Of a DNA stretch of 64,000 nt, positions 9,934 to 63,967 are shown one piece after another (position 1 is the first letter of the stretch; each line of letters opens with the position of its first letter). The position numbers were made by a program, and so were the translations under genes. The notes below the pieces were generated by a model that was not told where the DNA came from, searched no databases, and saw only the letters and a list, made by a program, of their open reading frames with translations. Source of the DNA: Alphaproteobacteria bacterium (GTDB taxonomy: Bacteria; Pseudomonadota; Alphaproteobacteria; UBA828); NCBI GenBank assembly GCA_963667785.2, contig CAXXMU010000002.1:832001-896000 (forward strand), given 5' to 3'.

Positions 9934-11109
9934 TCACCCGGCGCCGCCGGGCGCCCGATTCCGCGCGTAGACGCGGCCCTTCCACTCGCTCCGCCGGCCG
10001 CCCCAGTCGCGCAGCGCCGAGTGCCAAGTCATGGCCAGATAGAGCGTCCCGACCAGCGGCATGGCGAGCGCCCAGCCCGGCGCGACGCGGTAGTAGCGGA
10101 GGGTGGGCAGGTAGCAGCCGGCCATGACGGCGAGGCCCGCGCCGGCGGCAGCCTTGGCCGGCAGCGGCCCGGCGAGGCCCGCGAGAGGCGCCCAGAACGC
10201 GAGCGCCATGAGCGCGGTGCAGAGGAGAAGCAGCGTCGGCGAGTAGCGTAGCTGAGTGTAGGCCGTGCGCGCGACCATGTGCCAGACGTCGCCCAGCCCC
10301 GGATAGGCCCGGTGGCTCGCCGCCCCGAGGCTCACACCGATCCAGGTCCGGTAGCCTGCGTCCTTGACCGCCCGCGCCAGCGCGCAGTCGTCGATGAGCG
10401 CGCCGCGGATCGCGGCGAAGCCGCCGATGGCGTCGAGCACCCGGGTCTCCACGAGCACGCAGCCCCCGGCGGCGGCGGCCACGAGACGGCCCGGCCGGTT
10501 CGCGAGATGGAAGGGATAGAGCAGGCGGAAGAAGAAGACGAAGGCGGGCAGCAGGAGCTTCTCCCATCCGCCCGTCATCCTGAGCGCCGCCATGACGGAG
10601 ACCAGCGCCGCGCCCGTCTCCTCCTTCTTGGCGAGCAACGCATGGATCATCCCCGGCTTCAGCGCGATGTCGGCATCCAGCAGCAGGACGAGCGGGGTCT
10701 CGATCCGCCCCCTCCCCTGCTCCAGCGCCCAGAGCTTGCCGCTCCACCCCTCGGCCAGCGCCTCGCCCTGGCAGATCTCGAGTGCGAGTGCGTCCGGCGC
10801 GGCCTGCCCTGCTGCCTCCGCCGTCCCGTCGTCGGAGCGGTCGTCGACCAGGACCACGCGCAGGCGCTGGTCCCGACCCTGGCCCTGGCCGCCGAGCGCG
10901 GCCAGCGTCTCGCCGATGACCGCCGCCTCGTTGCGGGCGGGGATGAGCACCGTGACGCCGTCGAGGCCGCCGGCGACGGCACCCTCCCCGGTCGCCGGCT
11001 CGAGCCGCTCGCGGACGCGCCAGGGCTGCCACGGCAATATCAGGATGCAGAACCAGAGGAAGGCGCCGGCGGCGGCGAAGCCGCTCCAGAGCGTCGCTAT
11101 TGAGTCCAT
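9934..11109 (-). CDS. GT2 glycosyltransferase, hopene-associated HpnB family
   Basis: IPARNEA, DDRSDDGT, WSGKLWA, DAD, LIDDC, MVARTAYTQL. Confidence 0.8.
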   Translation of the reverse strand: MDSIATLWSGFAAAGAFLWFCILILPWQPWRVRERLEPATGEGAVAGGLDGVTVLIPARNEAAVIGETLAALGGQGQGRDQRLRVVLVDDRSDDGTAEAAGQAAPDALALEICQGEALAEGWSGKLWALEQGRGRIETPLVLLLDADIALKPGMIHALLAKKEETGAALVSVMAALRMTGGWEKLLLPAFVFFFRLLYPFHLANRPGRLVAAAAGGCVLVETRVLDAIGGFAAIRGALIDDCALARAVKDAGYRTWIGVSLGAASHRAYPGLGDVWHMVARTAYTQLRYSPTLLLLCTALMALAFWAPLAGLAGPLPAKAAAGAGLAVMAGCYLPTLRYYRVAPGWALAMPLVGTLYLAMTWHSALRDWGGRRSEWKGRVYARNRAPGGAG

Positions 11110-11222
11110 CGGCGGGGACCGTGCGCCGCCCCCGATGCCGGCTCAGACCGATGGCGCCGGCTGGGCGGCCACGACAGGCAAATCAGTAGACAACGAGGTG
11201 GTCAAACAGGACGGCGCGGGCA

Positions 11223-11645
11223 TCACTTCTCCCGGCGCTTGATGAGGGTCACCACGTTCTTGCCGTCCTCACGCCGGTAGCTGGCTTCGTCCATGAGCTT
11301 CTGCACGAGATAGACGCCGAGCCCGCCGATCGGGCGCTCAGGGATCGGCGAATCGAGATCGGGCTCCGGCGCCTCGGAGAACGGGTCGTATGGCTTGCCG
11401 TCGTCGACGATCTCCATGGTGAGCGTATTGGTCTCCGAGGTCAGCGTGACCTGAAAGTGATGCTGTCCCCCTTCGTCGTAACCGTACTTGACGATGTTGG
11501 TGCCGATTTCCTCCAGCACGAGCTTGATCTGGAACAGAAGATCCTCGGGCCAAACTTCTGCCTGTGCAAGAATATCGACGGCGGCGTGAATACGCTCGAT
11601 CTCGTCGAGCTCCGCTCGCATGTTGAGTGTAAGGTTCGCGCTCAC
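11223..11645 (-). CDS. RsbW-type anti-sigma factor / Ser-Thr kinase (HATPase_c_2)
   Basis: LEEIGTNIVKYG, DDGKPYDP, IGGLGVYLV. Confidence 0.85.
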   Translation of the reverse strand: MSANLTLNMRAELDEIERIHAAVDILAQAEVWPEDLLFQIKLVLEEIGTNIVKYGYDEGGQHHFQVTLTSETNTLTMEIVDDGKPYDPFSEAPEPDLDSPIPERPIGGLGVYLVQKLMDEASYRREDGKNVVTLIKRREK

Positions 11646-11820
11646 TATTCGGTCCTCGCTCGGTGGGAGGGTCGCGCGGGCGATGGCGTCACGCTGGCTC
11701 GGTAATACTCCGCTCGAGTATCTGCTGCATCGGACTGCGAAATGCTCTCTCTGCAGGCGCGGAGATCGGACGCGCCAATAGTTCCACGACACGCTGCTAT
11801 ACCTGCACCCGCTTGGCAAG

Positions 11821-11880
11821 CACCAATGGGGGTTGAAAATTGCTCACGTTGAGGCATGAGGAATTGCGCGCGTTGAGGAC
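11821..11880. mobile_element. possible IS21-like terminal repeat relic
   Basis: Imperfect direct repeats AATTGCTCACGTTGAGG (11838) and AATTGCGCGCGTTGAGG (11862), 24-bp spacing; no transposase nearby. Confidence 0.35.
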
Positions 11881-11957
11881 GCGCCCGATCGCGCCGAGTC
11901 GGCATGCGCCCGGGCGGATTGCCGCCGGGGCCTTTGCACGCGTCAGGGAAGAAAGGA

Positions 11958-12035
11958 TGGGGCGAGTGATGGGATTCGAACCCACGACCCCCGGAACCAC
12001 AATCCGGTGCTCTAACCGACTGAGCTACACTCGCC
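11958..12035 (-). tRNA. tRNA-His (GTG)
   Basis: Cloverleaf: GGCGAGTG acceptor, CCGGA-TTGTGGT-TCCGG anticodon arm, GGTTCGAATCC T-loop, encoded CCA; G-1 and C73. Confidence 0.97.
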
Positions 12036-31751: not shown

Positions 31752-32241
31752 ATGTCAGTGGAGCAACGTCTTCAGCGTCTGGAAGATATCGAGGCCATCA
31801 AGCAGCTCATCGCCCGCTACATGACGGCGGCGGATCACAATGGCGATCCGGCGATGATGGCGCCCTGCTTCACCGAGGACGCGGTCTGGAACTGCGAGGG
31901 GATCGGGCGCTTTGAGACCCGGGACGCCATCGTGGACGGCCTGCGCAAGACCTCCACCAAGACGCTCTCCTGGGCGCTGCACTACGCGACCCAGCCGATC
32001 ATCGAGGTGGCGGACGACCGGCCAGAGCGCTACCGGCGAGTACTATCTGTGGGAGCTGGCCAAGGCGGTGCAGGAAGACGGCAGCCCGGACCAGGACACC
32101 TGGATCGGCGGCTGGTACGAATCCAAGTTCCGCAAGGAAGGCGGCGACTGGAAGTTCAGTCACATCGAGCTGATCCTCAAGCTGCTCAGCCCCGCCAACG
32201 CGTCCTCGTGGGAGACCCCGATCCCGCCCTGGAAGGGCTGA
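31752..32241 (+). pseudogene. SnoaL/NTF2-like protein, frameshifted near 32018
   Basis: RLEDIEAIKQLIARY; extra C (GACCGGCCAG vs paralog GACGGCCAG) splits it; C-terminal half lies in ORF 31912-32241. Confidence 0.8.
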
Positions 32242-32260: not shown

Positions 32261-32752
32261 GTGGACATCGCGCAGCGGCTGCGGCGCCTCGAGGACATCG
32301 AGGCGATCAACCAGCTCATCGCGCGCTATGCCAAGGCGGTCGATCACAACGGCGATCCGGCGCTCGTCGCACCGCTCTTCACCGAGGACGCGGTGTGGCA
32401 CTGCGAGGGCATCGGCCACTGGGAGACTCGGGAAGGGATAGTCCGCGACATTCGCCCCAACTGCACCACCTTCATGCCCTGGGCCATCCACTACATGACC
32501 CAGCCGGCGGTGGAGGTGGCGGCCGACGGCCAGAGCGCCACCGCCAACCACTATCTCTGGGAGCTCGGCAAGGTGACGCCGGAGGGCGGCGGGCCGACCG
32601 AGGACACCTGGATCGGCGGCTGGTACGATTCGCGCTGCCGCAAGGAGGACGGCGCCTGGAAGTTCGCCCGCATCGACCTCACGCTGAAGCTCTTCAGCCC
32701 GGCCTCGAGCCCTTCCTGGAAGACGCGGATCGCCCCCTGGTCGCCGGCATAG
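32261..32752 (+). CDS. SnoaL/NTF2-like protein (BaiE/LinA-like)
   Basis: RLEDIEAINQLIARY, FTEDAVW, WAIHY, GGWY, DGAWKF. Confidence 0.88.
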   Translation: MDIAQRLRRLEDIEAINQLIARYAKAVDHNGDPALVAPLFTEDAVWHCEGIGHWETREGIVRDIRPNCTTFMPWAIHYMTQPAVEVAADGQSATANHYLWELGKVTPEGGGPTEDTWIGGWYDSRCRKEDGAWKFARIDLTLKLFSPASSPSWKTRIAPWSPA

Positions 32753-37787: not shown

Positions 37788-37815
37788 CGCTTTCTGACAG
37801 TCCCGGACGGCAGCA

Positions 37816-37947
37816 AGAGCGTATCCGTCTTTGACGGATACGCGACAGGCCGCGACCGCGGCCCGCCGCTTATGCGGCGCCCTCGCGGAGGCGCCGGCAG
37901 GCGCGCGGAATCGCGCGACGGCCGGCTGCCGTGAGCAATAAAGAGGC
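37816..37947. repeat. palindromic interspersed repeat (type B), partial copy
   Basis: AGAGCGTATCCGTCTTTGACGGATACGCG...AAAGAGGC, near-identical to 41242-41356. Confidence 0.85.
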
Positions 37948-38546: not shown

Positions 38547-39269
38547 CTAGCGCTCCGCGCTCGCGAGCCAGAGCGCGAGGAAGCGCCCGAGCCACGCGTG
38601 CACCGCCCGGTGATACCGCGCGTGGTTCGCGCGCTGCTCCGCCACGGTCTGCGCGCCCCGGCGCCCCAGGTCCTCGGCCGGCGGGTCGCGGTCGAGCCAG
38701 CGCGAGAGCACCGCGTCGTCGACCTCGGGGTGGAACTGCAGCCCCCAGGTCGTCTCCCCGTAGCGGAACGCCTGGTTCTCGAACACGTCGCGCCGCACGA
38801 GGTGACGCGCGCCCGCCGGCAGGGTGAACGCCTCGCCGTGACGATGTGCCACGGTGAGCGGCGCGTCGAGGGCGAGATCGTCGGCCGCGCCGTCCAGCGG
38901 CTCCACCGGGTAGTAGCCGAACTCGTAGAGCCCGTCGGGATCGGGCCCCACAGTGGCGCCGAGGGTCCGCGCCACCATCTGGCTGCCGAGGCAGATGCCG
39001 AGCATCGGCACACCCGCCGCCATGACGCGGGGAATCCAGTCCAGCTCCGCCCGCACGTAGTCGACATGGTCGTCGTTGGCGCTCTGCGGCCCGCCGAAGC
39101 TGACGACGCCCGCCAGCGAGTCCACGCCGTCCGGGAACGGCTCTCCCTTGTTGGCCCGGACGATCCGGGATCGCCGCCCGAGCGCGGCGAGCAGAGACGG
39201 CACGGCACCGGCGTCGATGGCGGTGACGTGGGTCACGAGCACCACGGGTGCCTCTGGGTCTGCGCTCAT
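38547..39269 (-). CDS. class I glutamine amidotransferase-like protein
   Basis: GGPQSAND, GICLGSQ, LQFHPE. Confidence 0.9.
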   Translation of the reverse strand: MSADPEAPVVLVTHVTAIDAGAVPSLLAALGRRSRIVRANKGEPFPDGVDSLAGVVSFGGPQSANDDHVDYVRAELDWIPRVMAAGVPMLGICLGSQMVARTLGATVGPDPDGLYEFGYYPVEPLDGAADDLALDAPLTVAHRHGEAFTLPAGARHLVRRDVFENQAFRYGETTWGLQFHPEVDDAVLSRWLDRDPPAEDLGRRGAQTVAEQRANHARYHRAVHAWLGRFLALWLASAER

Positions 39270-39288
39270 CCGCTCGTGCCTGCGGCGA

Positions 39289-39990
39289 TCACGTGGCGAC
39301 GAGAACGCCGTTCTCGAGCGCGAAGCGCCGGTCCATGCGCTCGGCGAGCGCCGTGTTGTGGGTCGCGACGAGCGCGGCGAGGCCGCTCACGCGCACGATA
39401 TCGAGGAGGGCGGCGAACACCGAGTCCGCGGTCTCGTGGTCGAGGTTGCCGGTCGGCTCGTCGGCCAGCAGCACCGCGGGCTCGTTGGCGATGGCGCGCG
39501 CGATGGCGACGCGCTGCTGCTCGCCGCCCGAGAGGCGGGAGGGCCGATGGCTCGCGCGCGCTTCGAGACCGAGGCGCGCGAGGAGCGCCTGTGCCCGCTC
39601 GCGCGCCGCGCGCCGGGAGCGGCCCGCGATCATCTGCGGCAGGATCACGTTCTCCAGCGCCGAGAACTCGGCCAGCAGGTGGTGAAACTGATAGACGAAG
39701 CCGAGCCGCTCACGCCGCACCCGGGTCCTGCGGCGATCGGGCAGCCCATCGCAGCGCTCGCCCGCGATGGCGATCTCGCCGGCATGAGGGCGCTCCAGCA
39801 GCCCGGCGATCTGGAGCAGGGTCGACTTGCCCGCGCCGGACGGCCCCACCAGGGCCACCATCTCGCCCGGCCCGACCGAGAGCGAGGCGCCCTTCAGCAC
39901 CTCGATGGCGCTGCCCGCCTGATGGAAGGTGTGCGCCACCCCGCGCAGCTCGAGCGCGGGCGCGCCGCCGGGTGCGGCCGGGTCACTCAT
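39289..39990 (-). CDS. lolD: lipoprotein-releasing ABC transporter ATPase
   Basis: [35 protein letters not shown]. Confidence 0.93.
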
Positions 39991-41227
39991 AGCGGAGCGC
40001 CTCCACCGGATCGAGCCGCGCCGCCCGCCAGGAGGGGTAGATCGTCGCCAGGAACGAGAGGCCGATCGCCATCACCGCCACCATCGCCACCTCGCCCGCA
40101 TCGATCCGGGACGGGAGCTGCGAGAGGAAGCGGATCTCGGCCGGGAACAGCGCCGTATCCGTCAGGTTCTCCAGCCACAGCCTGATGGCGTCGATATTGG
40201 CGGCGAAGGCGATGCCGCCGGCGACGCCGAGCGCCGTTCCCGCCAGCCCGATCGCCGCCCCGTTCATGAAGAAGATGCGCAGGATCTGCCCGCGCGTCGC
40301 CCCCATGGTGCGCAGGATGGCGATGTCGCGGCCCTTGTCCTTCACCACCATGATCAGCCCGGCGATGATGTTGAAGGCAGCGACCAGCACGATCAGGGTC
40401 AGGATCACGAACATGACGTTGCGCTCGACCTGGAGCGCGTTGACGAACTGCGCGTTGGCCCGGCGCCAGTCGACGACCCAGCCCTGCTGCCCAACGGCGG
40501 CGCGCACGCCGGCCTCGACCGCGCGCAGGCGCTCGGGATCGGCGGCGGTCAGCCCGATGGCGGTGACCGCGCCGGGCAACCTGAAATAGATCTGGGCGAG
40601 GTCAAGCGGCATCAGGACGTAGGTGCTGTCGTACTCGAACATGCCGACGTCGAAGGTCGCCACCACGGGATAGGCGCGCGAGCGGGGCATGGTCCCCATC
40701 AGCGTCGCCCGGCCCTCGGGCGAGAGCAGCGTGATCGACTCGCCAACCCTGACGCCGAGCTTGCGCGCCATGCGCTCGCCGATCACGACCCCCTCGCCGT
40801 CGGTGAAGCCCTCGAGCCGGCCGCTGACGATGTTCTCCGTGAGCAGCGGGCGCGCCGCCAGATAGTCGTCGCGCACGCCGCGCACCTGGCCGAAGGTGGC
40901 GTTGCCCCCGGCCGCCGCGATCACCTGGCCCTCGACGGCCGGCGAGACGGAGACGACGCCGTCGACCGCTTTGATGCGGTCTGCCAGCGTATCGAAGTCC
41001 ACCAGCCTCTCGTCGAAGGAATAGACCGTCATGTGCCCGTTGAGCCCGAGGATGCGGGCCACCAGCTCCTCGCGGAATCCGTTCATCACCGACATGACGA
41101 TGATGAGCGTGGCGACGCCGAGGAAGATGCCGATCAGGGAGAACGCCGCGATGACGGAGACCAGGCCCTCCTGCCGCCGGGCGCGCAGGTAGCGAAACGC
41201 GACGAGGCGCTCGAAGGCCGAGAACAT
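39983..41227 (-). CDS. lolE: lipoprotein-releasing ABC transporter permease LolC/E
   Basis: [40 protein letters not shown]. Confidence 0.92.
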
Positions 41228-41239
41228 GAGCGCCGGCCG

Positions 41240-41390
41240 CTAGAGCGTATCCGTCTTCGACGGATACGCGACAGGCCGCGACTGCGGCCCGCCGCTCATG
41301 CGGCGCCCTCGCGGAGGCGCCGGCTGCAAGCCGGCAGCCGCGAGCGACAAAGAGGCTAGAGCGTTTCCGTGCAAAGCGGACACGCTCTAG
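41240..41390. mobile_element. MITE-like repeat (type B) with CTAGAGCG terminal inverted repeats
   Basis: CTAGAGCGTATCCG...CGGACACGCTCTAG with a second internal CTAGAGCG at 41356; copy at 37816. Confidence 0.75.
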
Positions 41391-45278: not shown

Positions 45279-45404
45279 CCGCGCCTCTCCGCCCTCCCCG
45301 CACCTCTCCGCCCCGCCCGGCCGCTGCCGGGGCGGCGTTGCGCATAGGCGGTGCCGGGACGACAATGCGCCGGGGCAACGCCGCAGACGCGGGAGGCAAC
45401 GGCG

Positions 45405-47399
45405 ATGAACGAGAGCGCGACCAGCAATGTCACCGTAGGCGCAGAGACGCTTCGGGATCTCTACCTCACCATGCGCCGCATCCGCGCTTTCGAGGACAAG
45501 ACCGCCGACCTCTTCCAGGAAGGCGTCGTCAAGGGCACGGCCCACAGCTACAAGGGCGAGGAGGCAATCGCCGCCGGCGTCTGCGCGGCGCTGCGCGACG
45601 ACGACATCATCGCCTCCTACCACCGCGGCCACGGCCACTGCATCGCCAAGGGCGCCCGCATCGACCGCATGATGGCGGAGCTGATGGGCCGCCAGACCGG
45701 CTACTGCCAGGGCCTCGGCGGCTCCATGCACATCGCCGACATGGAGCTCAACATCATGGGCGCGAACGGCATCGTCGGCGCTGCCATGCCGCTCGCCACC
45801 GGCGCGGGCCTCGCCGCCAGGCTGGAGGGGTCGGACCGCGTGGCCGTGGCCTTCTTCGGCGACGGCGCGTCGAACCAGGGCGTCTTCCACGAATCGCTCA
45901 ACCTCGCGGCGGTGTGGAAGCTGCCGGTGATCTTCGTCTGCGAGAACAACCAGTACGCGCTGTCCACCTCCTACCGGAACACCACCGCCGTCTCCCAGGT
46001 CGCGAACCGGGCGGCCTCCTACGAGATTCCCGGCATCACCGTGGACGGGAACGACGGCGTCGAGGTCTATCTCGTGCTGCGCGAGGCGGTCGACCGCGCC
46101 CGCACCGGCGACGGGCCGACGCTGATCGAGGCGATGACCTACCGCCACGGCCAGCACTCGCTCCGCGTCAACCTGCGCGACCCGCGGCCCGAGGACGAGC
46201 TCCAGACCTGGCTCGACCGCGACCCCATCGCGCGGATGGAGAAGCGCCTCAGCAGCGAGGGCGGCTTCTCCGAGGACCAGTTCGACGAGACCAACCGCGC
46301 CGTCGAGGACGAGATCGAGACCGCCGTGACTTACGGCCGCGAGAGCCCGGAGCCGCCGGTGCACGTGATGCTCGACGCCGTCTACGCCCCCCACGCGGCG
46401 CACACCGAGCCGGGGCCGGAGACCGAGCGCATGCTCTCCTACCCCGAGGCGCTCAACGAGGCGCTGGACCAGGAGATGCTGCGGGACGACCGGGTCTTCC
46501 TCATGGGCGAGGACGTGGGCGCCACCGGCGGCATCTTCGGCGTCTCCAAGGGGCTGATGGAGCGCTACGGGGCCGAGCGCGTGCGCGACACGCCGATCTC
46601 GGAGGCGACCTTCGTCGGCTGCGGCGTCGGCGCCGCCATCGCCGGCATGCGGCCGGTGGTTGAGATCCAGATCTTCGACTTCGTCGCGCTCACCATGGAC
46701 ATGCTGGTCAACCAGGCGGCCAAGTTCCGCTTCATGCTGGGCGGCAAGCCTTCCGTGCCGCTGGTGGTGCGCGGGCCGCAGGGCGGCGGCATCCGGCTCG
46801 CGGCCCAGCACAGCCAGAGCCTGGAGGCCTGGTTCACCCACGTGCCGGGGCTCGTGGTGGCGGCGCCCTCCACGCCCTACGACGCCAAGGGGCTGCTGGT
46901 GGCCGCGATCCGCGACGAAAACCCGGTGGTCTTCCTGGAGCAGAAGCTGCTCTACCTCGGCGGCACCGGGCCGGTGCCGGAGGAGCTCTACGCCATCCCC
47001 CTCGGCAAGGCCGACATCAAGCGCGAGGGCACGGACGTCACCGTGGTCGCCACGTCCGCCATGGTGCCGCGCGCGCTCAGCGCCGCCACGGTGCTGGAGC
47101 GCGACGGCGTCAGCGTCGAGGTGATCGACCCGAGGACCCTGCAGCCCTTGGACGAGGAGACCATCCTCGCCAGCGTGCGCAAGACCAACCGGCTGCTGAT
47201 CGTGCACGAGGCCTGGGTGCGCGGCGGCTTCGGCGCCGAGGTGGCGGCCATGGTGGTGGACAAGGCCTTCGACTACCTCGATGCCCCCGTCGCCCGCCTC
47301 GGCGCCCCGCACACGCCGATGCCCTACAACGACCGCCTCGAGCTCGAGGTCATCCCCTCGCAGGAGCGCATCGTGGAGGCGATCCGCGCGCTGCTGTAA
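45405..47399 (+). CDS. fused TPP-dependent dehydrogenase E1 alpha+beta (acetoin/2-oxoacid type)
   Basis: HRGHGH, GGSMH, GDGA...ENN TPP motif, then GEDVG, DTPISE, HSQS in one frame. Confidence 0.93.
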
Positions 47400-47439
47400 C
47401 CCTGCCGGCGGCAGGCGGGCCGAGATGTGCGCGCCGTGC

Positions 47440-47590
47440 GGGACAGGGGGCCGGGGCGGCACCGGGATCCTGTGGGATCCTGTGGGATTCGGCGGGATTC
47501 GGCTGGAGAAGGCGGGATTGCACGGGACGGGAGCGGGGGTCCTGGGGGGCATGCGGGATTTCGTGGGATAGCGAGGGATTCCGGGCGGGA
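47440..47590 (+). repeat. phased GGGAT-N5 decamer array
   Basis: GGGA at 47464, 47474, 47484, 47494, (TGGA 47504), 47514, 47524, then 47555, 47565, 47575; outliers at 47440 and 47587. Confidence 0.85.
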
Positions 47591-47771
47591 CAGGTGGCCT
47601 CCATATCCCACTTGAGCACCGGCTCCCCTGCCGTGCCCCGCTCCTTCCCGCTCGTCGCCGCTCTCCCACATCATGCCGCGACCTTCGCACGCCTCCCGCA
47701 CGAGCGGCACCGCACCATGGTCCGGGCAATGGGGTGAGGCGGCGGAAGCACGCCACCGCCAGCCGACCCCT

Positions 47772-47949
47772 CCTCACCCCGGCCCTCTCCTCCCCGGCGG
47801 GGAGGAGAGGGAGGATAGGCGGCACCGCCACCGTCCTTCACCGCCCTCCGGGGACGTGCTTCACTGCCCTCTGGGTTTGAGAGCAAGGTCAGTGCAACCC
47901 ACGTCCCCTCTCCGCCCTTCAAGGGGGGAGAGGGACAGGGAGAGGTGGG
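47772..47949. repeat. inverted pair of REP-like hairpins
   Basis: CCTCACCCCGGCCCTCTCC...GGAGAGGG and CCCTCTCC...GGAGAGGGACAGGGAGAGGTGGG, same units as in 2449-2557. Confidence 0.8.
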
Positions 47950-48055
47950 TTTACTGGCTCGGCGACTCGCTCCGGCCCGCCGCGCCCTGCCCTTCCGTCA
48001 CCTCGTGATCGTCCTGGGCAGCCTCGCCCGGCGGCTTCGGCGTGACCGGACGCTG

Positions 48056-48250
48056 GGCCCGCGTGCTATGGTCGCCACCACCTCTGCTGGAGTGGGAGGT
48101 GCGCTGAGGGAGTGGATGACGCAATGACCTCCAACCGAATGCCCGGCCTAGATTTTGGGCTCGGCGAGACGGCCGACATGATCCGCTCGTCCGCCGAGAG
48201 CTTCGCGCAGGCCGAGATCGCCCCACGTGCCGAAGAGATCGAGGCGAGCA
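48056..48250 (+). pseudogene. duplicated ivd promoter/leader plus first 42 codons
   Basis: 48124-48250 aligns to 49323-49449 with 10 mismatches; upstream 48056-48123 resembles 49261-49322. Confidence 0.92.
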
Positions 48251-48328
48251 GCCTGTTGCCTCTTCTACCCTTGCCAGCACACGAGACAATGGGCATTACG
48301 TTCACAATCATAGAAAAGCGATAGCTCA

Positions 48329-49066
48329 ATGAATGACGCGTCACTTTTTAGGAAATTGAGTCCAAATACCAATATCTATAGGATATTCTCAAACAAATAC
48401 TTTTTTGAACTGTTCGAGAATAGACAAAACGCGCTAGTATTGCCAAGAAAGTGGGACGATCCATTCGAAAATGTTTTGTTGCGCTGCAAGGCCCGATCAG
48501 TCTCAGACGATGAGGAAGTTACCTTCGGATTTAGAGACCGTGTCTATGGCCAATGCTGGACACTGGAATCCGTCTCTGACGCTATGTGGCAAATATATTC
48601 ACGCAAAAGAAACGGAATCCGCGTAAGAACGACAGTTGGAAAGCTCATCGAAAGCATCCGCGCAGTGCACGGCGAAGGAGCGAATTTGAGCTGCTTTATT
48701 GGACGCGTCAGTTATGTGACCGACGAGAAGCTTCGTGAGCTTGGCAAAACACTCTTTAAAGAATGTGTCCATAGCCGCAAGGTTGCGCAGTCACTGCTCA
48801 TTAAGCGTAAAGCCTACAGATACGAAAATGAGGTGCGACTAATCTATTTCGATCATGCTCATCATCAATCCATTAGAGAGGTTTACAGATATAGCTTTGA
48901 TCCACTCTATATGATCGACCAGGTTATGGTTGATGGACGGATTCCTGTAGAAAAATCTCTTGCTTTGAAACAGGAGATTTTCGAGCGCACTGGTCTTTCA
49001 AAACGTCGCATTAGACGCTCATTGCTTTACAGTGAGCCGAAAAATTTTGTTGTATACGTTCCATAA
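48329..49066 (+). CDS. DUF2971-like protein, AT-rich and probably foreign
   Basis: IYR, WDDPFE, CWT...SDAMWQIYS, GIRV, KRKAYRYENEVRL; strongly atypical codon usage. Confidence 0.75.
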   Translation: MNDASLFRKLSPNTNIYRIFSNKYFFELFENRQNALVLPRKWDDPFENVLLRCKARSVSDDEEVTFGFRDRVYGQCWTLESVSDAMWQIYSRKRNGIRVRTTVGKLIESIRAVHGEGANLSCFIGRVSYVTDEKLRELGKTLFKECVHSRKVAQSLLIKRKAYRYENEVRLIYFDHAHHQSIREVYRYSFDPLYMIDQVMVDGRIPVEKSLALKQEIFERTGLSKRRIRRSLLYSEPKNFVVYVP

Positions 49067-49322
49067 TCTATCACAATAATGCATCTCCCCTGTAGTGTTG
49101 TCCAGAAACACTTGAGAAGTGTTATTCACATTCTCAGGGCAGCTAAGCGCGCGATTCAAGCATAAGCGAGCCCCTGCTCACTACAACACCGAATAATTCA
49201 GCTATTGCTTGCGGCTATCTGATGTACCCTAGCGTGCGCGAGAGCACCGCCAAGCTTTCCGGCCCTGTGCTATTGTCACCACACCGTTGGAGTGTGAGGC
49301 AGCGAAAGGAGCCGGCATCGCA

Positions 49323-50495
49323 ATGACCTCCAACCGAATGCCCGGCCTGGATTTCGGGCTCGGCGAGACGGCCGACATGATCCGGTCCTCGGTCGAGAGC
49401 TTCGCGCAGGCCGAGATCGCCCCGCGCGCGGAAGAGATCGACGCGAGCAACGCCTTCCCGCGCGACCTCTGGCCCCGGCTCGGCGAACTCGGGCTGCTCG
49501 GCATCACCGTGGAGGAGGAGCAAGGCGGCAGCGGCCTCGGCTACCTCGAGCACTGCGTCGCCATGGAGGAGGTGAGCCGCGCGTCCGCCTCCGTCGGCCT
49601 CAGCTACGGCGCGCACTCCAACCTCTGCGTCAACCAGATCAGGCTGAACGGCACGCCCGCCCAGCGCGACCGCCACCTGCCGAAGCTCATCTCCGGCGAG
49701 CATGTCGGCGCGCTCGCCATGAGCGAGCCGGGCGCGGGCTCGGACGTGGTGGGCATGCGCACGCGGGCGGAGCGCAAGGGCGATCGCTACGTGCTGAACG
49801 GGTCCAAGATGTGGATCACCAACGGGCCGGAGGCCGAGGTGCTGGTGGTCTACGCCAAGACCGACGCAGAGGCCGGCAGCCGCGGCATCACCGCCTTCCT
49901 GATCGAGAAGGGCATGCCCGGCTTCTCCACCGCCCAGAAGCTCGACAAGCTCGGCATGCGCGGCTCCGACACCTGCGAGCTCGTGTTCGAGGACTGCGAG
50001 GTGCCGGCGGAGAACGTGATCGGCGAGGAGGGCGGCGGCGTGGGCGTGCTGATGAGCGGGCTCGACTACGAGCGCGCGGTGCTGGCCGCGGGCCCGCTCG
50101 GCATCATGCGCGCCTGCATGGACATCGTGCTGCCCTACGTCCACCAGCGGCAGCAGTTCGGCCGGCCCATCGGCACCTTCCAGCTCATGCAGGGCAAGCT
50201 CGCGGACATGTACACGGCGATGAACGCCTCCCGCGCCTACGTCTACGCCGTGGCGCAGGCCTGCGATCGCGGCGAGACCAGCCGCAAGGACGCCGCCGGT
50301 GCCATCCTCTTCGCCGCCGAGAAGGCCACCTGGATGGCGCTGGAGGCGATCCAGGCGCTGGGCGGCAACGGCTACGTCAACGAGTTCGCCACCGGCCGGC
50401 TGCTGCGCGACGCCAAGCTCTACGAGATCGGCGCCGGCACCAGCGAGATCCGCCGCATGCTCATCGGCCGCGAGCTCTTCGAGGAGACCGAGTGA
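49323..50495 (+). CDS. ivd: isovaleryl-CoA dehydrogenase
   Basis: [42 protein letters not shown]. Confidence 0.95.
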
Positions 50496-50547
50496 CGGCG
50501 CAGCCGCCCGCACACCGCGCGGCGACGCCCCCCCTGCCCGCTTGCGC

Positions 50548-50773
50548 GTCGTCCGACCTGACGGGTTCACGGCGATCCGACGACTCCCACCTCCCCCTGT
50601 CCCCCTCCCCCAAAGGCGGAGGGGGAACTTGGGCGGCACCGCCCGTTCTCCCTCTCCGCCCCTGGGGGCGGAGAGGGCCGGGGTGAGGTGGGGGTAAGCC
50701 CAGGTGGCACCGCACGAGGAGTGGGCACCCGCGGCAACTCGCTGCGATCGTGCCTGAACGAAGAGTGCTCTAG
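50548..50773. repeat. inverted copy of type A MITE-like repeat (left end degenerate)
   Basis: 50585-50773 is the reverse complement of 2369-2557 with scattered substitutions; ends GTGCTCTAG. Confidence 0.85.
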
Positions 50774-57162: not shown

Positions 57163-58304
57163 GCGTCAGCATCGAGCGGGTGGAGGTGATCTGCCTCCAG
57201 GACCCGGCAGCCCGCTACTACCGCTTCGAGGGCAGCTACCGGAACGTGCTCGTGCTCGTCCACGGCGACAACGGGCTCACGGGCATCGGCGAGAGCGACG
57301 CCCCGCCAGAGATCGTCCGGGCGGTCATCGCGATGGCGCCCTACAACGAGCGCGCCGAGGGGCTCGCCGCCATCGTGACCGGCGAGGCCGTGGACGACCC
57401 GCGCCGCCTGTGGGACGCGATGCGCGCGCGCTCGGCGTGGCACGGCCGGCGCGGCGCGGCGATGCACGCGATCAGCGCGCTCGACATCGCCATCTGGGAC
57501 CTCTTCGCCCGCTCGAACGGGATCCCGCTCTGCGCGGCGCTGGGCGGCGCGCGCCACGAGCGCCTGCCGGCCTACGCGACGCTCTATCCCCTGGAGGACG
57601 AGCCCGCGCACATCGACGCCCAGGTCGCGCCCCTGCTGGAGCAGGGCTTCCGCCACCTGAAGATCTGCGTCGAGCCGTGGTGGGCGGAGCCGGAGCGGGT
57701 GCGGCGGAACCTCACGCACCTGCGGGCGCTGGTGGGGCCGGCGCGCGGCCTGATGCTCGATGTCGCGCAGGAGTTCACGCGGCTGGACCAGCTCGCGCCC
57801 TTCCTCGACCTGCTGGCCGCGCTGGACTTCGCCTGGATCGAGTCGCCCTTCCCGCAGGAGGATGTCGCCGAGCACGCGCGGCTCGGCGCCGCGACGCGCA
57901 TCCCCATCGGCGTCGGCGACCTGGGCCTCACCACCTGCGGGGAGTTCGAGCCCTTCCTCGAGGCCGGCGCCTTCGACATCGCCCAGCCGGACCTGACCAT
58001 GTTCGGCGGCTTCACCGAGGCGCTGCGGCTCGCGCGGATGCTGGCGGGCACCGGCAGGCGGATCGTGCCGCACGGCTACAACACCGACATCACCATCGCG
58101 GCCAACCTTCACTTCATGGCGACGCTGGAGAGGGCTGACCTCGTCGAGGTCTCGACCAGCCCCTCGCGCCTTCGCCGCGAGCTGGTCCGGGGCCTCCCGC
58201 CGCTCGGAGACGACGGGACGATCACCGTTCCCGACGGGCCGGGCCTCGGCATCGAGGTGAACGCCGAGGTGGTGGACGCGCTGCGCGTCCAAGTCACTTC
58301 CTGA
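57159..58304 (+). CDS. mandelate racemase/muconate lactonizing enzyme family protein
   Basis: GIGE, AISALDIAIWD, LMLD, WIESP, QPD, GPGLGIE; ATGA overlap with upstream gene. Confidence 0.88.
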   Translation: MSVSIERVEVICLQDPAARYYRFEGSYRNVLVLVHGDNGLTGIGESDAPPEIVRAVIAMAPYNERAEGLAAIVTGEAVDDPRRLWDAMRARSAWHGRRGAAMHAISALDIAIWDLFARSNGIPLCAALGGARHERLPAYATLYPLEDEPAHIDAQVAPLLEQGFRHLKICVEPWWAEPERVRRNLTHLRALVGPARGLMLDVAQEFTRLDQLAPFLDLLAALDFAWIESPFPQEDVAEHARLGAATRIPIGVGDLGLTTCGEFEPFLEAGAFDIAQPDLTMFGGFTEALRLARMLAGTGRRIVPHGYNTDITIAANLHFMATLERADLVEVSTSPSRLRRELVRGLPPLGDDGTITVPDGPGLGIEVNAEVVDALRVQVTS

Positions 58305-58566
58305 AGAGGTCGGCGTGAGAGCCGGTGCGGGCCAGCTGCAATTCGTCCCCCTTCACGCGGTAGATGAGGAGCCAGTCCGGCTCGAGATGAATTTCGCGGT
58401 ACTCGTGCCATTTTCCCCGCAGCGGATGATCGCGATACCGTGCGGGCAGGAGGTCCCGCCGCATGAGTGCCTCCAGCGGCGGCCGGAGCTTGGCGAGGTC
58501 CTTGCCCCGCCTCTTCGCCCGCTTTACGTCCCGCCTGAATTGCGTTGAGGTGACGGGGGTCAGCAC
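58294..58566 (-). CDS. yafQ: type II TA toxin, YafQ family
   Basis: FRRDVK, DHPLRG, HLEPDWLLIY, RTGSHADLF. Confidence 0.92.
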   Translation of the reverse strand: MLTPVTSTQFRRDVKRAKRRGKDLAKLRPPLEALMRRDLLPARYRDHPLRGKWHEYREIHLEPDWLLIYRVKGDELQLARTGSHADLFRK

Positions 58567-58567
58567 G

Positions 58568-58825
58568 TCAGGCGCCGATGTCCTCGAACAGGTCCGCGGC
58601 GCCGGTGTGGCGCTTGCCCTTGCCGTCGTCCAGCTCCTTCATCGCTTCCACGGTGGTGGCGTTCGGCACGTGAACGGCGAACGGCAGGCGCTTCTCGTCG
58701 GCCACCCGCAGCAGCAGCAGGCGGATCGCGTCGGATACCGTCAAGCCCATGGCGTGAAGGGCCTCGGTGGCGCGCGCCTTGGTATCGCTGTCGATGCGTG
58801 CCCGCACCACGGAATCGGCCGGCAT
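58568..58825 (-). CDS. dinJ: type II TA antitoxin, DinJ/RelB family
   Basis: VRARID, GLTVSDAIR, LPF, PNATT. Confidence 0.9.
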   Translation of the reverse strand: MPADSVVRARIDSDTKARATEALHAMGLTVSDAIRLLLLRVADEKRLPFAVHVPNATTVEAMKELDDGKGKRHTGAADLFEDIGA

Positions 58826-61465: not shown

Positions 61466-62697
61466 TCCTCCTCCAGCGGATAGGAGGAGAGCTGCTCGTG
61501 GCCGTCAGCGGTGATCAGCACCTGCTCCTCAAGCTTGACCGATTCGCGGCCGCCGGCGGGCGAGGTCAGCGCCTCCACGCAGAGCACCATCCCCTCGCGC
61601 AGCACGGCGTCGTCGCCGGAGTCCTCGTCCTGCGGGTAGTGGATGACCGGATACTCGTCGCAGAGCCCCACCCCGTGCATCGCCGCCACGTAGCGCTGCT
61701 CGACGAACTCGTCGCCGAGGGGGCGCAGCCGCTCCGTCAGCTCGCGGAAGCCCACGCCCGGCTTCAGCAGCGCCTTGTTCTCCTGGATGTGCGCGTAGGC
61801 GTCGGCGTAGAGGCGCCGCTGCTCGTCGTCGGGCCGCGCGTCGCACACCCAGGTGCGCGAGATGTCGCAGCAATAGCCGTAGGGGCCCACGAGATCGGTG
61901 TCGAAGGCGACGATGTCGCCGCGCTCGATCGGCCGCAGCGAGGATTCGCGGAACCACGGGTTGGTGCGCGGCCCGGAGGCGAGCAGCCGGGTCTCGATCC
62001 ACTCGCCGCCGCCGGCGATGTTGCCGCGGTGGAGCTCGGCCCAGAGCGCGTTCTCGGTGATGCCGGGCACGAGCGCCGCCCGCATCTGCGCGATGGCCTG
62101 CTCGCACACGTGGATGGAATGACGCATCAGGGCGATCTCGCCGGCCGACTTGATGTTGCGGGCGTTCTCCATCACCTCGAAGCCGTCGAATATCTCGTAG
62201 CCCAGCCGCTGCATCTCGATGACGCCCTGCGGCGCGACCCGGTCGATGGCGATACGCCGGTTGCCGCCTGCGTCCGCCCGGATCACCGAGTCCAGATCGG
62301 CGGCCCAGGTCCTCGCCATCTCCGCGAGCTCCGTGCCGGCGATGAAGTAGAGGAAGGCGATGGCCGGGCGCACCTCGCCGATGGTGGGCAGGCCCTCGTT
62401 GATCAGCGTGCTGCCGCCGCCGAACTCGAAGAGGCGGACCGGCCCTTCCGTCGGCACGTAGAGGTAGCGCGACTCGTTGTGGGCGCACCAGATCTGCATG
62501 TTCGTCGCATCGCTGGCGTAGCGGATGTTCACCGGGTCGTAGAGGAGGATGCCGGCGAGGTCGCGCTCCGCCAGCGCCGCGCGCACGCGCGCGAGCCGGT
62601 AGCGCCGCACCGCGTCGAGATCGCACGGCGGGATGCTGTGCTCCATCGCGCCGTGCTGGCGCGGCGTGTTGGCCGTGTTGCCGCCTTCGCTATTCAT
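61456..62697 (-). CDS. M24 metallopeptidase-fold protein, DddP (DMSP lyase)-like
   Basis: DPVNIRYASDATNMQIW, WIETRLLASGPRTNPWF, FDTD, DISR, HGVGLCDEYP, VKLEEQ. Confidence 0.8.
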   Translation of the reverse strand: MNSEGGNTANTPRQHGAMEHSIPPCDLDAVRRYRLARVRAALAERDLAGILLYDPVNIRYASDATNMQIWCAHNESRYLYVPTEGPVRLFEFGGGSTLINEGLPTIGEVRPAIAFLYFIAGTELAEMARTWAADLDSVIRADAGGNRRIAIDRVAPQGVIEMQRLGYEIFDGFEVMENARNIKSAGEIALMRHSIHVCEQAIAQMRAALVPGITENALWAELHRGNIAGGGEWIETRLLASGPRTNPWFRESSLRPIERGDIVAFDTDLVGPYGYCCDISRTWVCDARPDDEQRRLYADAYAHIQENKALLKPGVGFRELTERLRPLGDEFVEQRYVAAMHGVGLCDEYPVIHYPQDEDSGDDAVLREGMVLCVEALTSPAGGRESVKLEEQVLITADGHEQLSSYPLEEEWL

Positions 62698-62758: not shown

Positions 62759-63967
62759 TCAGACCTCCCTGCCGAGCAGCCGCTCGTCGAAGGGAAACGT
62801 GCTCATGGTCTCGATACCCGTCTCGGTCACCAGCACCTGCTCCTCGAGCTTCACCCCCTCGCCGCCGTCCTCGTGGCCGATGAAGCTCTCGATGCAGAGC
62901 GTCATGTCGGGCTCGACGATGCCGTCATAGTCCCGCCCGGAGTCGTAGTCGGCCTCGTAGACGATATAGGGATACTCGCCCGTGGCGCCGATGCCGTGGA
63001 TCATCAGGTAGTAGCGGCGCGCGTAGTAGGGGGCGGGGATCGTCCACGCCGCCTCCGTGATCTCCCGGAACGTCCGCCCCGGCCGGATCAGGTCCATGTT
63101 GTGGTGGATCTGCTCGTGGGCGAGGCGGTAGAGCGTCGTCTGTGCGGCGCTCGGCCGGCCGTCGCCGCAGAGGAAGGTCCGCGAGAAGTCCGCGTAGTAG
63201 CCGTGCGGGCCGACGACGTCGGTATCGTGGGCGACCAGCTCGCCGGCGCGGATCACGCGCTCGCCGCTTTCCTGGAACCAGGGGTTGGTCCGCTCGCCCG
63301 AGCTGAGCAGCCGCGTCTCCACATAGTCAGCGCCGTCCGCGATCAGATGGCGATGGAACTCCGCCCAGAGCGCGTTCTCGCTGATGCCGGGCCTGACGGC
63401 GTCCTGCAACGCCCGCTCCGCCGCCATGACGCAGGCCATCGAGCGCTTCGAGCAGGCGATCTCCTCGGGCGTCTTGATCGCCCGCGCCCTCTCGGCCGGC
63501 GCCTGGGCGTCGAGGACGGCGAAGCCCCGGTCCGCCAGATGGTTGGCGGCGCGCACGTCGATACGCTCCAGGCCGATCCGGGTCTCGCCCGGACAGTGGC
63601 GGCGCATGAGCGCGGCGATCTCGTCGGCCCAGGCCCGCGCCGTCTCGTCCAGGAGCGGCCCGCGCGCCACGTAGGAGACCGTGGTCGAGACGCGGATCTC
63701 GTCGATCGCCGGGTTGTCCCGCTCCATGTGCTCGCAGCCTGCGAACTCGAACAGCACGACCGGGCCCTCGACGGGCACGAACACGTAGCGCGCCGGATTG
63801 CGCAGGAGGAAGGGCAGCATGTTCCGCGCGCCGGTGGCGTAGCGCACGTTGTGCGGGTCGGTCAGCACCAGGGCCGCCACGTCGAAGCGCGCCATCTCCG
63901 CCCGCAGCCGCGCCAGCCGGCCGAGGCGCAGGGCGGTCTCGTCGGGCGCCGGCGGCACCGGGCTCAT
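62759..63967 (-). CDS. M24 metallopeptidase-fold protein, DddP-related paralog
   Basis: DPHNVRYATG..NM, ETRLLSSGERTNPWFQE, HDTD, DFSR, HGIG, GVKLEEQ. Confidence 0.8.
   Translation of the reverse strand: MSPVPPAPDETALRLGRLARLRAEMARFDVAALVLTDPHNVRYATGARNMLPFLLRNPARYVFVPVEGPVVLFEFAGCEHMERDNPAIDEIRVSTTVSYVARGPLLDETARAWADEIAALMRRHCPGETRIGLERIDVRAANHLADRGFAVLDAQAPAERARAIKTPEEIACSKRSMACVMAAERALQDAVRPGISENALWAEFHRHLIADGADYVETRLLSSGERTNPWFQESGERVIRAGELVAHDTDVVGPHGYYADFSRTFLCGDGRPSAAQTTLYRLAHEQIHHNMDLIRPGRTFREITEAAWTIPAPYYARRYYLMIHGIGATGEYPYIVYEADYDSGRDYDGIVEPDMTLCIESFIGHEDGGEGVKLEEQVLVTETGIETMSTFPFDERLLGREV

Follow-up and report, generated by a model that had tools for sequence, protein, structure and literature searches.

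A low-GC islet with a candidate defence gene between two starts of an alphaproteobacterial isovaleryl-CoA dehydrogenase gene: a possible remnant of an integrative element

Why should a catabolic gene possess two starts, with a foreign gene lodged between them? This question is raised by ivd, the gene for isovaleryl-CoA dehydrogenase, in a 64-kb stretch of an alphaproteobacterial genome assembly (contig CAXXMU010000002.1, positions 832,001 to 896,000; hereafter the window). Here 1,010 bp of low-GC DNA, enclosing one intact gene (the cargo), separates a full-length ivd from an upstream copy of its first 42 codons (the stub). The reading tentatively preferred below is that this islet is the remnant of an integrative element that targeted the ivd 5' end and brought a surrogate start with it.

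The insert is foreign to its surroundings. Its GC content is about 0.39-0.53 (0.385-0.51 over 48300-49099), against 0.67-0.74 in the flanks, and the bin 48001-49000 has the lowest GC among the 64 one-kb bins of the window. The GC content at third codon positions (GC3) is 0.45 in the cargo and 0.93-0.98 in ivd. No terminal inverted repeats were found at the ends of the insert, no terminator-like or + strand promoter-like sites within it, and no Rfam family was matched there. The folding of the 3' spacer is unremarkable (z = -1.8), and that of the stub region is likewise not notable.

Two copies of the ivd start bracket this insert. The first-pass annotation of the window had described a direct repeat, 48056-48250 (copy A) against 49261-49449 (copy B), around about 1 kb of low-GC DNA with one gene, and these coordinates hold. 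A repeat finder returned a gapless core of 131 nt with 92% identity and a spacing of 1199 (48120-48250 against 49319-49449), while an nhmmer alignment widens the match to 48060-48266. The pair is the only ivd-related one in the window, and no further stubs occur there. Counted from the ATGs at 48124 and 49323, the coding copies show 10 differences in 127 nt (92.1% identity). Nine of these lie at third codon positions (chance of at least nine, P = 3.6e-4) and eight are synonymous (chance of at least eight, P = 2.5e-4 to 8.6e-4), the others being A24V and E40D; recomputation thus gave the same eight synonymous changes, with one A/V and one E/D, as had been reported before. The longest identical run in the repeat, read off the alignment by eye, is ~30 nt. 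The non-coding parts, 48056-48123 and 49261-49322, are far more diverged than the coding part, with indels and with 50 of 71 alignment columns identical. The window contains GTGCTATNGTC at two places and no others, 48063 and 49267 (two matches in 0 of 100 shuffles); GTGCTATGGTC sits at 48063 in the 5' untranslated region (5'UTR) of copy A, and GTGCTATTGTC at 49267 in that of copy B. Each ATG is preceded at 11 nt by a GGAG-type ribosome-binding site, GAGGGAG in copy A and AAAGGAG in copy B.

The two 5'UTRs were compared with the in-frame upstream translations of relatives whose predicted proteins are N-terminally extended. Copy A (..AEGVDDA before the initial M) resembles relatives P0159 and P0192 (..GANDA), and copy B (..AAKGAGIA) resembles P0148 (..AKGVGAD) and P0245 (..SGATIA), so that both versions appear to be ordinary variants of the clade. 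On sequence grounds, the two copies are functional ivd starts of different lineages and not a fresh duplication. Because the divergence is codon-structured, a fresh target-site duplication and the decay of a local duplicate are both excluded. The codon structure, together with the resemblance of the two 5'UTR variants to different relatives of the same clade, bears out the proposal of the first-pass annotation that the second start came from another lineage. Mosaicism at the N-terminus of the dehydrogenase was also considered among relatives and found uninformative, this being simply the most conserved part of the protein.

All four A/T-ending third-position variants and both amino-acid changes are on the stub copy. 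Its A24 and E40 are seen in none of the 119 listed relatives, as is expected of a displaced, unconstrained copy. The GC3 of the stub (0.83) was considered as a sign of foreign origin and rejected, as it lies within the normal range: 3 of 26 other open reading frames (ORFs) are equally low in their first 42 codons. Its domain match to Acyl-CoA_dh_N (4.8e-4) is below the cut-off. The left junction, 48250/48251, falls inside coding sequence and shows no recognisable site. Beyond it the stub reads 24 codons into the insert and stops 4 nt ahead of the cargo ATG; the same run into foreign DNA, ending at 48324, had been noticed at first reading. Only 12 of the 27 nt that follow codon 42 match ivd, which is not significant, and the stub tail is not diverged ivd, its score being reached in 945-1103 of 5000 protein shuffles and 719 of 2000 DNA shuffles.

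The gene downstream is complete. Its product of 390 aa holds three acyl-CoA dehydrogenase domains in Pfam and is 94-97% identical to the 119 listed relatives, with P0148 as the best full-length match, in keeping with the earlier claim that ivd was restored. Two of these relatives, from metagenome-assembled genomes (MAGs) of Rhodospirillaceae/Rhodospirillales, are named isovaleryl-CoA dehydrogenase by NCBI, as are plasmid-borne homologues with 69-78% DNA identity; no NCBIfam equivalog reached its cut-off. The name ivd is thus well supported by homology.

Table 1. Features of the ivd locus, in positions of the window
Feature	Coordinates	Strand	Remarks
Resident ivd 5'UTR/promoter-proximal region (repeat copy A, non-coding)	48056..48123	+	Joined to high-GC upstream DNA
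Stub ORF, 66 aa	48124..48324	+	ivd codons 1-42 to 48249, then 24 insert codons; TAG 48322-48324
Foreign low-GC insert, 1,010 bp	48251..49260	.	GC profile
Cargo gene, 245 aa, DUF2971 / PDC-S31 candidate	48329..49066	+	Pfam, PADLOC
Non-coding spacer, cargo stop to surrogate ivd 5'UTR	49067..49260	+	GC climbs toward right end
Surrogate ivd 5'UTR (repeat copy B, non-coding)	49261..49322	+	Joined to insert
Full-length ivd, isovaleryl-CoA dehydrogenase, 390 aa	49323..50495	+	First 127 nt (to 49449) = repeat copy B

The cargo protein matches the Pfam family DUF2971 (PF11185) with 28.4 bits, the gathering cut-off being 22, and the PADLOC profile PDLC04993, the candidate single-gene defence system PDC-S31, with 7.4e-78 (residues 8-242 on profile positions 9-242 of 245). 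It also matches two PHROG families of unknown function. No NCBIfam family was matched, and a profile search of solved structures gave nothing significant. Homologues number 362 among 1048 candidates from a protein collection; nearly all are ~245 aa long and come from metagenomes, the closest being 80% identical and the second 66%. In an alignment of 63 sequences the cargo possesses every invariant or near-invariant residue, including Y73-G-Q-C-W and E166-x-E168, and Y73 (in YGQCW) and E166-N-E168 are near-invariant across the 63 homologues. These residues presumably correspond to motif II, the conserved Tyr, and motif III, ExE, of the predicted ADP-ribosyltransferase core.

The available part of PMC12522546 predicts that DUF2971 is a DarT-like ADP-ribosyltransferase, marked by an ExE motif and a conserved Tyr. 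One member, Aristaios, is a DUF2971 gene of a Lactococcus plasmid; the accessible portion of PMC11381338 reports that it was found by experiment to be a single-gene anti-phage system with an abortive-infection phenotype, and that its predicted fold is ADP-ribosyltransferase-like. The cargo resembles Aristaios in consisting of a single DUF2971 gene and in containing the conserved Tyr and ExE named for the family. The two differ in that Aristaios has 316 aa and is plasmid-borne in Lactococcus, whereas the cargo subfamily has ~245 aa and is mostly metagenomic, and they are likened by family description, not by sequence. The cargo may thus be considered an Aristaios-like candidate for abortive-infection defence by a DarT-like ADP-ribosyltransferase. 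PDC-S31 was not mentioned in the literature searched, supplements lying outside the search. Homologues of the cargo on plasmids are at most 39% identical to it, and no flanking gene-end repeats were found at the two plasmid contexts inspected (L081 and L082). Some relatives of the cargo, P0006 and P0037 among them, have predicted N-terminal extensions of 30-87 aa with a composition like that of translated high-GC DNA. This suggests that the low-GC cargo family sits in high-GC hosts elsewhere too, with an open frame running into the gene.

The sequence TGCTAT had been named earlier as a -10-like box. This remains a guess, for a sigma-70 consensus scan of the E. coli type gave no + strand promoter in 47400-50700 and recognised neither ivd 5' region. 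No promoter-like or terminator-like site was found between the resident ivd 5' region and the cargo. Since there is neither terminator nor promoter before the cargo and the gap from stop to start is 4 nt, transcription of the cargo probably starts at the resident ivd promoter and passes through the stub ORF, and the cargo may be translationally coupled to the stub. The full-length ivd would then depend for its expression on read-through, on the surrogate 5' region, or on both.

Truncated ivd starts were also found in relatives. The 66-aa stub was searched against short proteins in the range of 36-116 aa, which gave 25 non-self matches. Twelve are truncated ivd starts of the same clade, most of them on contigs of 4-157 kb or more; the remaining 13 are normal ivd genes broken by a frameshift or an end, or belong to other clades. 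Three further stubs, all decayed, came from a representative library, in which 14 of 150 listed matches were inspected, picked for short length or high identity. Codon 49 is the last in ten of these 15 stub ORFs. Five are shorter: one breaks off by a frameshift, one passes after codon 28 into an unrelated Asn-rich tail, and three are decayed. None continues beyond codon 49 into foreign sequence. They range from near-intact to heavily decayed, with 27-45 identities to the clade consensus, a range which suggests repeated or old events. Two of them come from contigs equal in length to that of a full-length ivd (P0127 and P0211, 111,827 nt; P0144 and P0215, 3,042,943 nt), so that a stub and a full ivd very probably occur together there as well. 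The first-pass annotation had proposed a hotspot of gene capture, and the 15 truncated starts lend support to repeated use of the site; by comparison of these proteins, the 5' end of ivd appears to have served repeatedly as an insertion site in this Rhodospirillales-like clade.

Wider searches reached more distant loci. Among the matches listed for the ivd protein in genome contigs, the best ivd is 83% identical, that is, distant, and none of the 80 loci among them, all at 83% identity or less, contains the cargo, the neighbours seen in the window (E1 and old yellow enzyme, OYE) or a second ivd start. A GC dip of at least 0.15 upstream of ivd was seen at 3 of 71 of those distant loci; the one dip inspected, at L046, was rejected as an islet, being the 5' region of a chemotaxis-receptor-like gene. 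The plasmid and phage collections returned only ordinary ivd genes for the window region, at 69-78% identity. The ivd N-terminus gave three weak matches in phages, all of them full acyl-CoA dehydrogenases. A three-term literature search, supplements outside its scope, found no mention of ivd as an attachment site.

The closest parallel to the locus is the cryptic prophage e14 in the icd gene of E. coli K-12. There e14 supplies the final 165 nt of icd, and the resident end that it displaced persists as the pseudogene icdC. In both cases an insert lies inside a metabolic gene, a surrogate gene end keeps the gene whole, and the resident end is left as a stub. Phage 21 likewise integrates at E. 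coli icd. The icd/icdC repeat of 165 nt has 12 differences (92.7% identity), of which 11 are at third positions and 10 are synonymous against 2 that are not, with a longest run of 29 nt; its 92.7% and 11/12 are practically the same as the 92.1% and 9/10 found over 127 coding nt in the window. The two systems differ in scale and in end: e14 is 15.2 kb long, carries intE and xisE and lies at the icd 3' end, whereas the insert of the window is 1.0 kb long, carries one gene and no recombinase, and lies at a 5' end. Because the insertion is at the 5' end, the surrogate must here supply a 5'UTR and a ribosome-binding site as well. The ivd locus may therefore be likened to a 5'-end mirror image of e14 at icd/icdC. 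Excision of e14 recombines icd with icdC and leaves a chimeric icd, according to the available part of PMC13626634, which cites Hill et al. 1989.

On the preferred reading, the foreign 1-kb islet would have come into the 5' part of ivd along with a surrogate start, which comprised ~68 nt of 5'UTR and at least 42 codons from another lineage of the same clade. The surrogate start would now head the working ivd, the resident start having been pushed upstream, where it persists as the 42-codon stub. The parent would belong to a family of site-specific elements targeting ivd near codon 49/50 in the Rhodospirillales-like clade, and its phage-type attachment (attP) arm would have carried the surrogate 5'UTR and start. 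One internal deletion would then have taken most of the element, the presumed recombinase included, as well as the final seven codons of the stub, leaving a defence gene proximal to the attachment (att) site. Defence genes do lie near the ends of e14, where lit is three small features from icd and mcrA is the last coding sequence before icdC, and one deletion could leave just such a gene. Movement in trans, like that of a cis-mobilizable element (CIME), would be an alternative to reduction. After such a deletion the islet is probably no longer mobile by itself. An upper bound at codon 49, with shorter stubs as derivatives by deletion or decay, fits an att site, and the end of the window stub at codon 42 fits this pattern. 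The origin from an integrative element is favoured because its signature is the same as that of e14 and because islands made by integrases are generally frequent; it is nevertheless held with somewhat less than even confidence.

Several points weigh against such an element. No integrase, transposase, excisionase or other recombinase was detected in the insert or in 60 Pfam-scanned frames of the window, and the first-pass annotation had likewise reported neither integrase nor transposase. These frames comprise 46 called ORFs, 11 open frames in gene-call gaps (as delimited by a crude gene call), and the stub, cargo and ivd; of the 53 called ORFs, seven stood outside the scan of 46, namely four short ones whose GC pattern is non-coding and the three (stub, cargo and ivd) that were scanned separately. 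A decayed element often leaves fragments, and the insert is compact, with no significant Pfam family in the five open stretches of its non-coding flanks. Neither an att core nor integrase-binding repeats could be defined. The stub of the window ends at codon 42 and not 49, with no significant similarity past codon 42. The stubs of relatives are known from proteins alone, in which a stop codon and a contig end at codon 49 are not distinguished. Several of those ending at codon 49 carry the derived endings HF or NF, and the ten may descend from one or a few old events. N-terminal fragments of ivd are moreover common in metagenome protein sets (790 matches at E <= 1e-3). Finally, the readings of the origin were weighed on the DNA of the window and the proteins of relatives, the loci of close relatives lying outside the data.

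The next most plausible origin, possible and somewhat behind the element, is a cassette that moves without an integrase. The unit of ~1.2 kb would consist of the cargo with a portable ivd 5'UTR and ~42 codons serving as a handle of homology, and RecA could excise it between the two ivd starts. It would travel as DNA by transformation, gene transfer agent or transduction, and a single homologous crossover of the Campbell type into the ivd of a relative would give the order stub, cargo, full ivd. This is favoured by the lack of a recombinase in the scanned frames of the window, the compactness of the insert, free of gene remnants, inverted repeats and hairpins, the ordinary character of both 5'UTR variants in the clade, and three identical blocks of ~29-30 nt (read from the alignment by eye) that RecA could use. 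A fixed handle end would likewise explain why many stubs end at one codon. Against the cassette, the same repeat signature is given by e14, a known integrase-borne element, and the ending of 10 of 15 stubs at codon 49 is what an att site would give. Repeats of 131-195 bp at no more than 92% identity are also a poor substrate for recombination. The variants on the stub side fit no crossover in codons 9-40, whereas a homologous crossover could fall anywhere; their clustering lends slight preference to a crossover where the homology ends, by an element or by illegitimate recombination, over a crossover of the cassette at a random place. Only a single cargo was seen, and no circle, empty site or second cassette was observed.

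A wider form of the cassette idea would make the first ~50 codons of ivd a docking site, free of recombinases and shared by the whole clade, at which small units of one defence gene with a portable ivd promoter and 5' handle move by host homologous recombination alone. This is doubtful. If true, each arrival would restore ivd, use the resident promoter through a leader ORF and push the old start upstream, with arrays of decaying stubs as the outcome and an integron-like capture of genes without an integrase.

Less likely again is a one-off event of homology-facilitated illegitimate recombination, in which a linear fragment from a relative with the cargo already upstream of its ivd was incorporated. 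The homologous joint would lie inside or beyond ivd on the right and the illegitimate joint at codon 42/43 on the left, the resident ivd being replaced from codon 43. The element, the cassette and this event all lead to one and the same topology, which in the present case needs neither a circle nor a recombinase, and it agrees with a left junction within coding sequence at no recognisable site and with the resemblance of both the surrogate 5'UTR type and the gene body to P0148. A similar route has been proposed for the displacement of type VI secretion system (T6SS) effector modules, which leaves orphan remnants (available part of PMC5361080). The same part of that source puts the frequency of such events orders of magnitude below that of homologous recombination. 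Random joints would moreover be expected anywhere in ivd, yet 10 of 15 stubs end at codon 49 and none beyond it in the range of 36-116 aa. This clustering fits the element or a cassette with a fixed handle and argues against illegitimate recombination as a general process. The first arrival of the cargo upstream of the donor ivd would also be left unexplained.

It is very improbable that the locus is an artefact of assembly in which two strains were fused within a MAG: the assembly is apparently of the metagenome type, the relatives being MAGs, and the divergence of the two ivd starts is of the degree found between strains or species, but the junction 48250/48251 lies outside the repeated sequence and cannot be made by a repeat-induced misjoin, a single contig of 973,932 nt contains stub, cargo and ivd together, and a stub and a full ivd apparently occur together in two other assemblies. 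The least credible origin is a local tandem duplication of the ivd start with later insertion of the cargo between the copies and decay, which would yield direct repeats around an insert but does not agree with 9 of 10 differences at third positions and 8 of 10 synonymous (P ~3e-4 to 9e-4), where a non-functional duplicate would diverge evenly, or with a non-coding part that is much more diverged, with indels, as between orthologues.

Other classes of mobile DNA were compared with the locus. A transposon or insertion sequence was rejected, as there is no transposase, no inverted repeats stand at the ends, and the repeats are 190-195 bp long and 8% diverged. An integron gene cassette resembles the insert in being a promoter-less single gene of ~1 kb that uses an upstream resident promoter and could form a small circle. 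It differs in its flanks, which in the window are two copies of a gene start and not attI/attC, and it was rejected because neither an attC-like hairpin or inverted repeat after the cargo nor an integrase gene intI is present in the window. Repetitive extragenic palindromic (REP)-like inverted repeats at 47767-47949 and 50585-50694 were rejected as parts of the insert, since they are part of a dispersed element that is found again at 2447-2557. This GC-rich element, similar to REP or to miniature inverted-repeat transposable elements (MITEs), contains hairpins (CCCTCTCC...GGAGAGGG); its copy at 2447-2557 shares 94% identity with the one at 50585-50694, which has the opposite orientation, and partial copies lie upstream of the ivd stub.

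Among known systems without a recombinase of their own, CIMEs share with the islet an insert between direct repeats derived from the target gene, with neither integration nor transfer genes. Under the definition in the available part of PMC5704250, accretion at an att site that includes a gene end would give arrays of stubs. The insert of the window is far smaller than the CIMEs described, and part of its left attachment site (attL) may be lost, as the stub ends at codon 42 and those of relatives at 49. In the displacement arrays of T6SS effector-immunity and Rhs (rearrangement hotspot)/CDI (contact-dependent inhibition) genes, as outlined in the part of PMC5361080 that is available, a homology-anchored module likewise displaces the resident and leaves an orphan remnant with no need of a recombinase. 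These arrays, however, grow at the variable 3' end of toxin genes and keep immunity genes, whereas the window shows the 5' end of a metabolic gene and clustered stub ends. The core defence hotspots (cDHS) of Pseudomonas aeruginosa resemble the locus in having a low-GC defence gene between core genes with no obvious mobile-element genes, and transfer by flanking homology has been proposed for them (accessible part of PMC10250203). They differ in their extent of 1-224 kb and in being flanked by two core genes that are both intact, neither end being duplicated, while the insert of the window lies within a gene and has a surrogate start. The kind of structure is already known from surrogate-end integration, CIMEs, displacement arrays and core defence hotspots. 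Particular to this locus is that it combines insertion at a 5' end, with a surrogate 5'UTR and ribosome-binding site, an insert of one gene, and the recurrence of stubs in an uncultivated clade.

The ivd locus offers a clean, minimal example of a single, probable anti-phage gene lodged in a catabolic housekeeping gene without harm to the latter, and it points to the ivd 5' end as a place of recurrent insertion in an alphaproteobacterial clade that is abundant and uncultivated. Such sites proved cheap to detect through truncated gene starts among short predicted proteins. If the units move without a recombinase, they would represent a new and very simple route of gene capture. If they do not, the locus would be the 5'-end counterpart of e14 at icd and would help to trace the parent elements together with the defence genes that they carry.

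Upstream of the locus, on the + strand at 45351-47399, lies a gene for a fused E1 alpha-beta 2-oxoacid dehydrogenase (E1_dh, Transket_pyr and Transketolase_C domains; ORF of 664-682 aa), preceded by a PaaK-like CoA ligase and an enoyl-CoA hydratase. With these genes nearby, ivd is set in a catabolic neighbourhood and not in a canonical liu operon. About 9 kb from the insert, at 58294-58825 on the - strand, is a type II pair of RelB antitoxin and YafQ toxin (Pfam 9.6e-22 and 3.5e-31).

Some further features of the window were observed. A direct repeat of 91 nt, 37808-37898 and 41234-41324, is 95% identical, forms three or four strong hairpins (z = -4.1 and -4.8; 0 of 200 shuffles as good) and has no Rfam match. 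Its two copies enclose a block of 3.4 kb that encodes a class-I glutamine amidotransferase and a pair of ABC ATPase and FtsX permease (38547-41227). The stretch 11001-12034 contains the second-lowest GC bin outside the ivd locus (0.63); in it a gene of lower GC3 at 11223-11819, encoding an anti-sigma-factor-like kinase domain (HATPase_c_2), adjoins tRNA-His at 11958-12034 on the - strand, the only tRNA of the window, and may be a small acquired gene at a tRNA. Two tandem pairs of paralogues, SnoaL-like genes at 31763-32196 and 32272-32704 (75-78% DNA identity) and M24 peptidase/creatinase-like genes with similar segments at 61945-62084 and 63269-63408 (74%), are ordinary diverged duplications.

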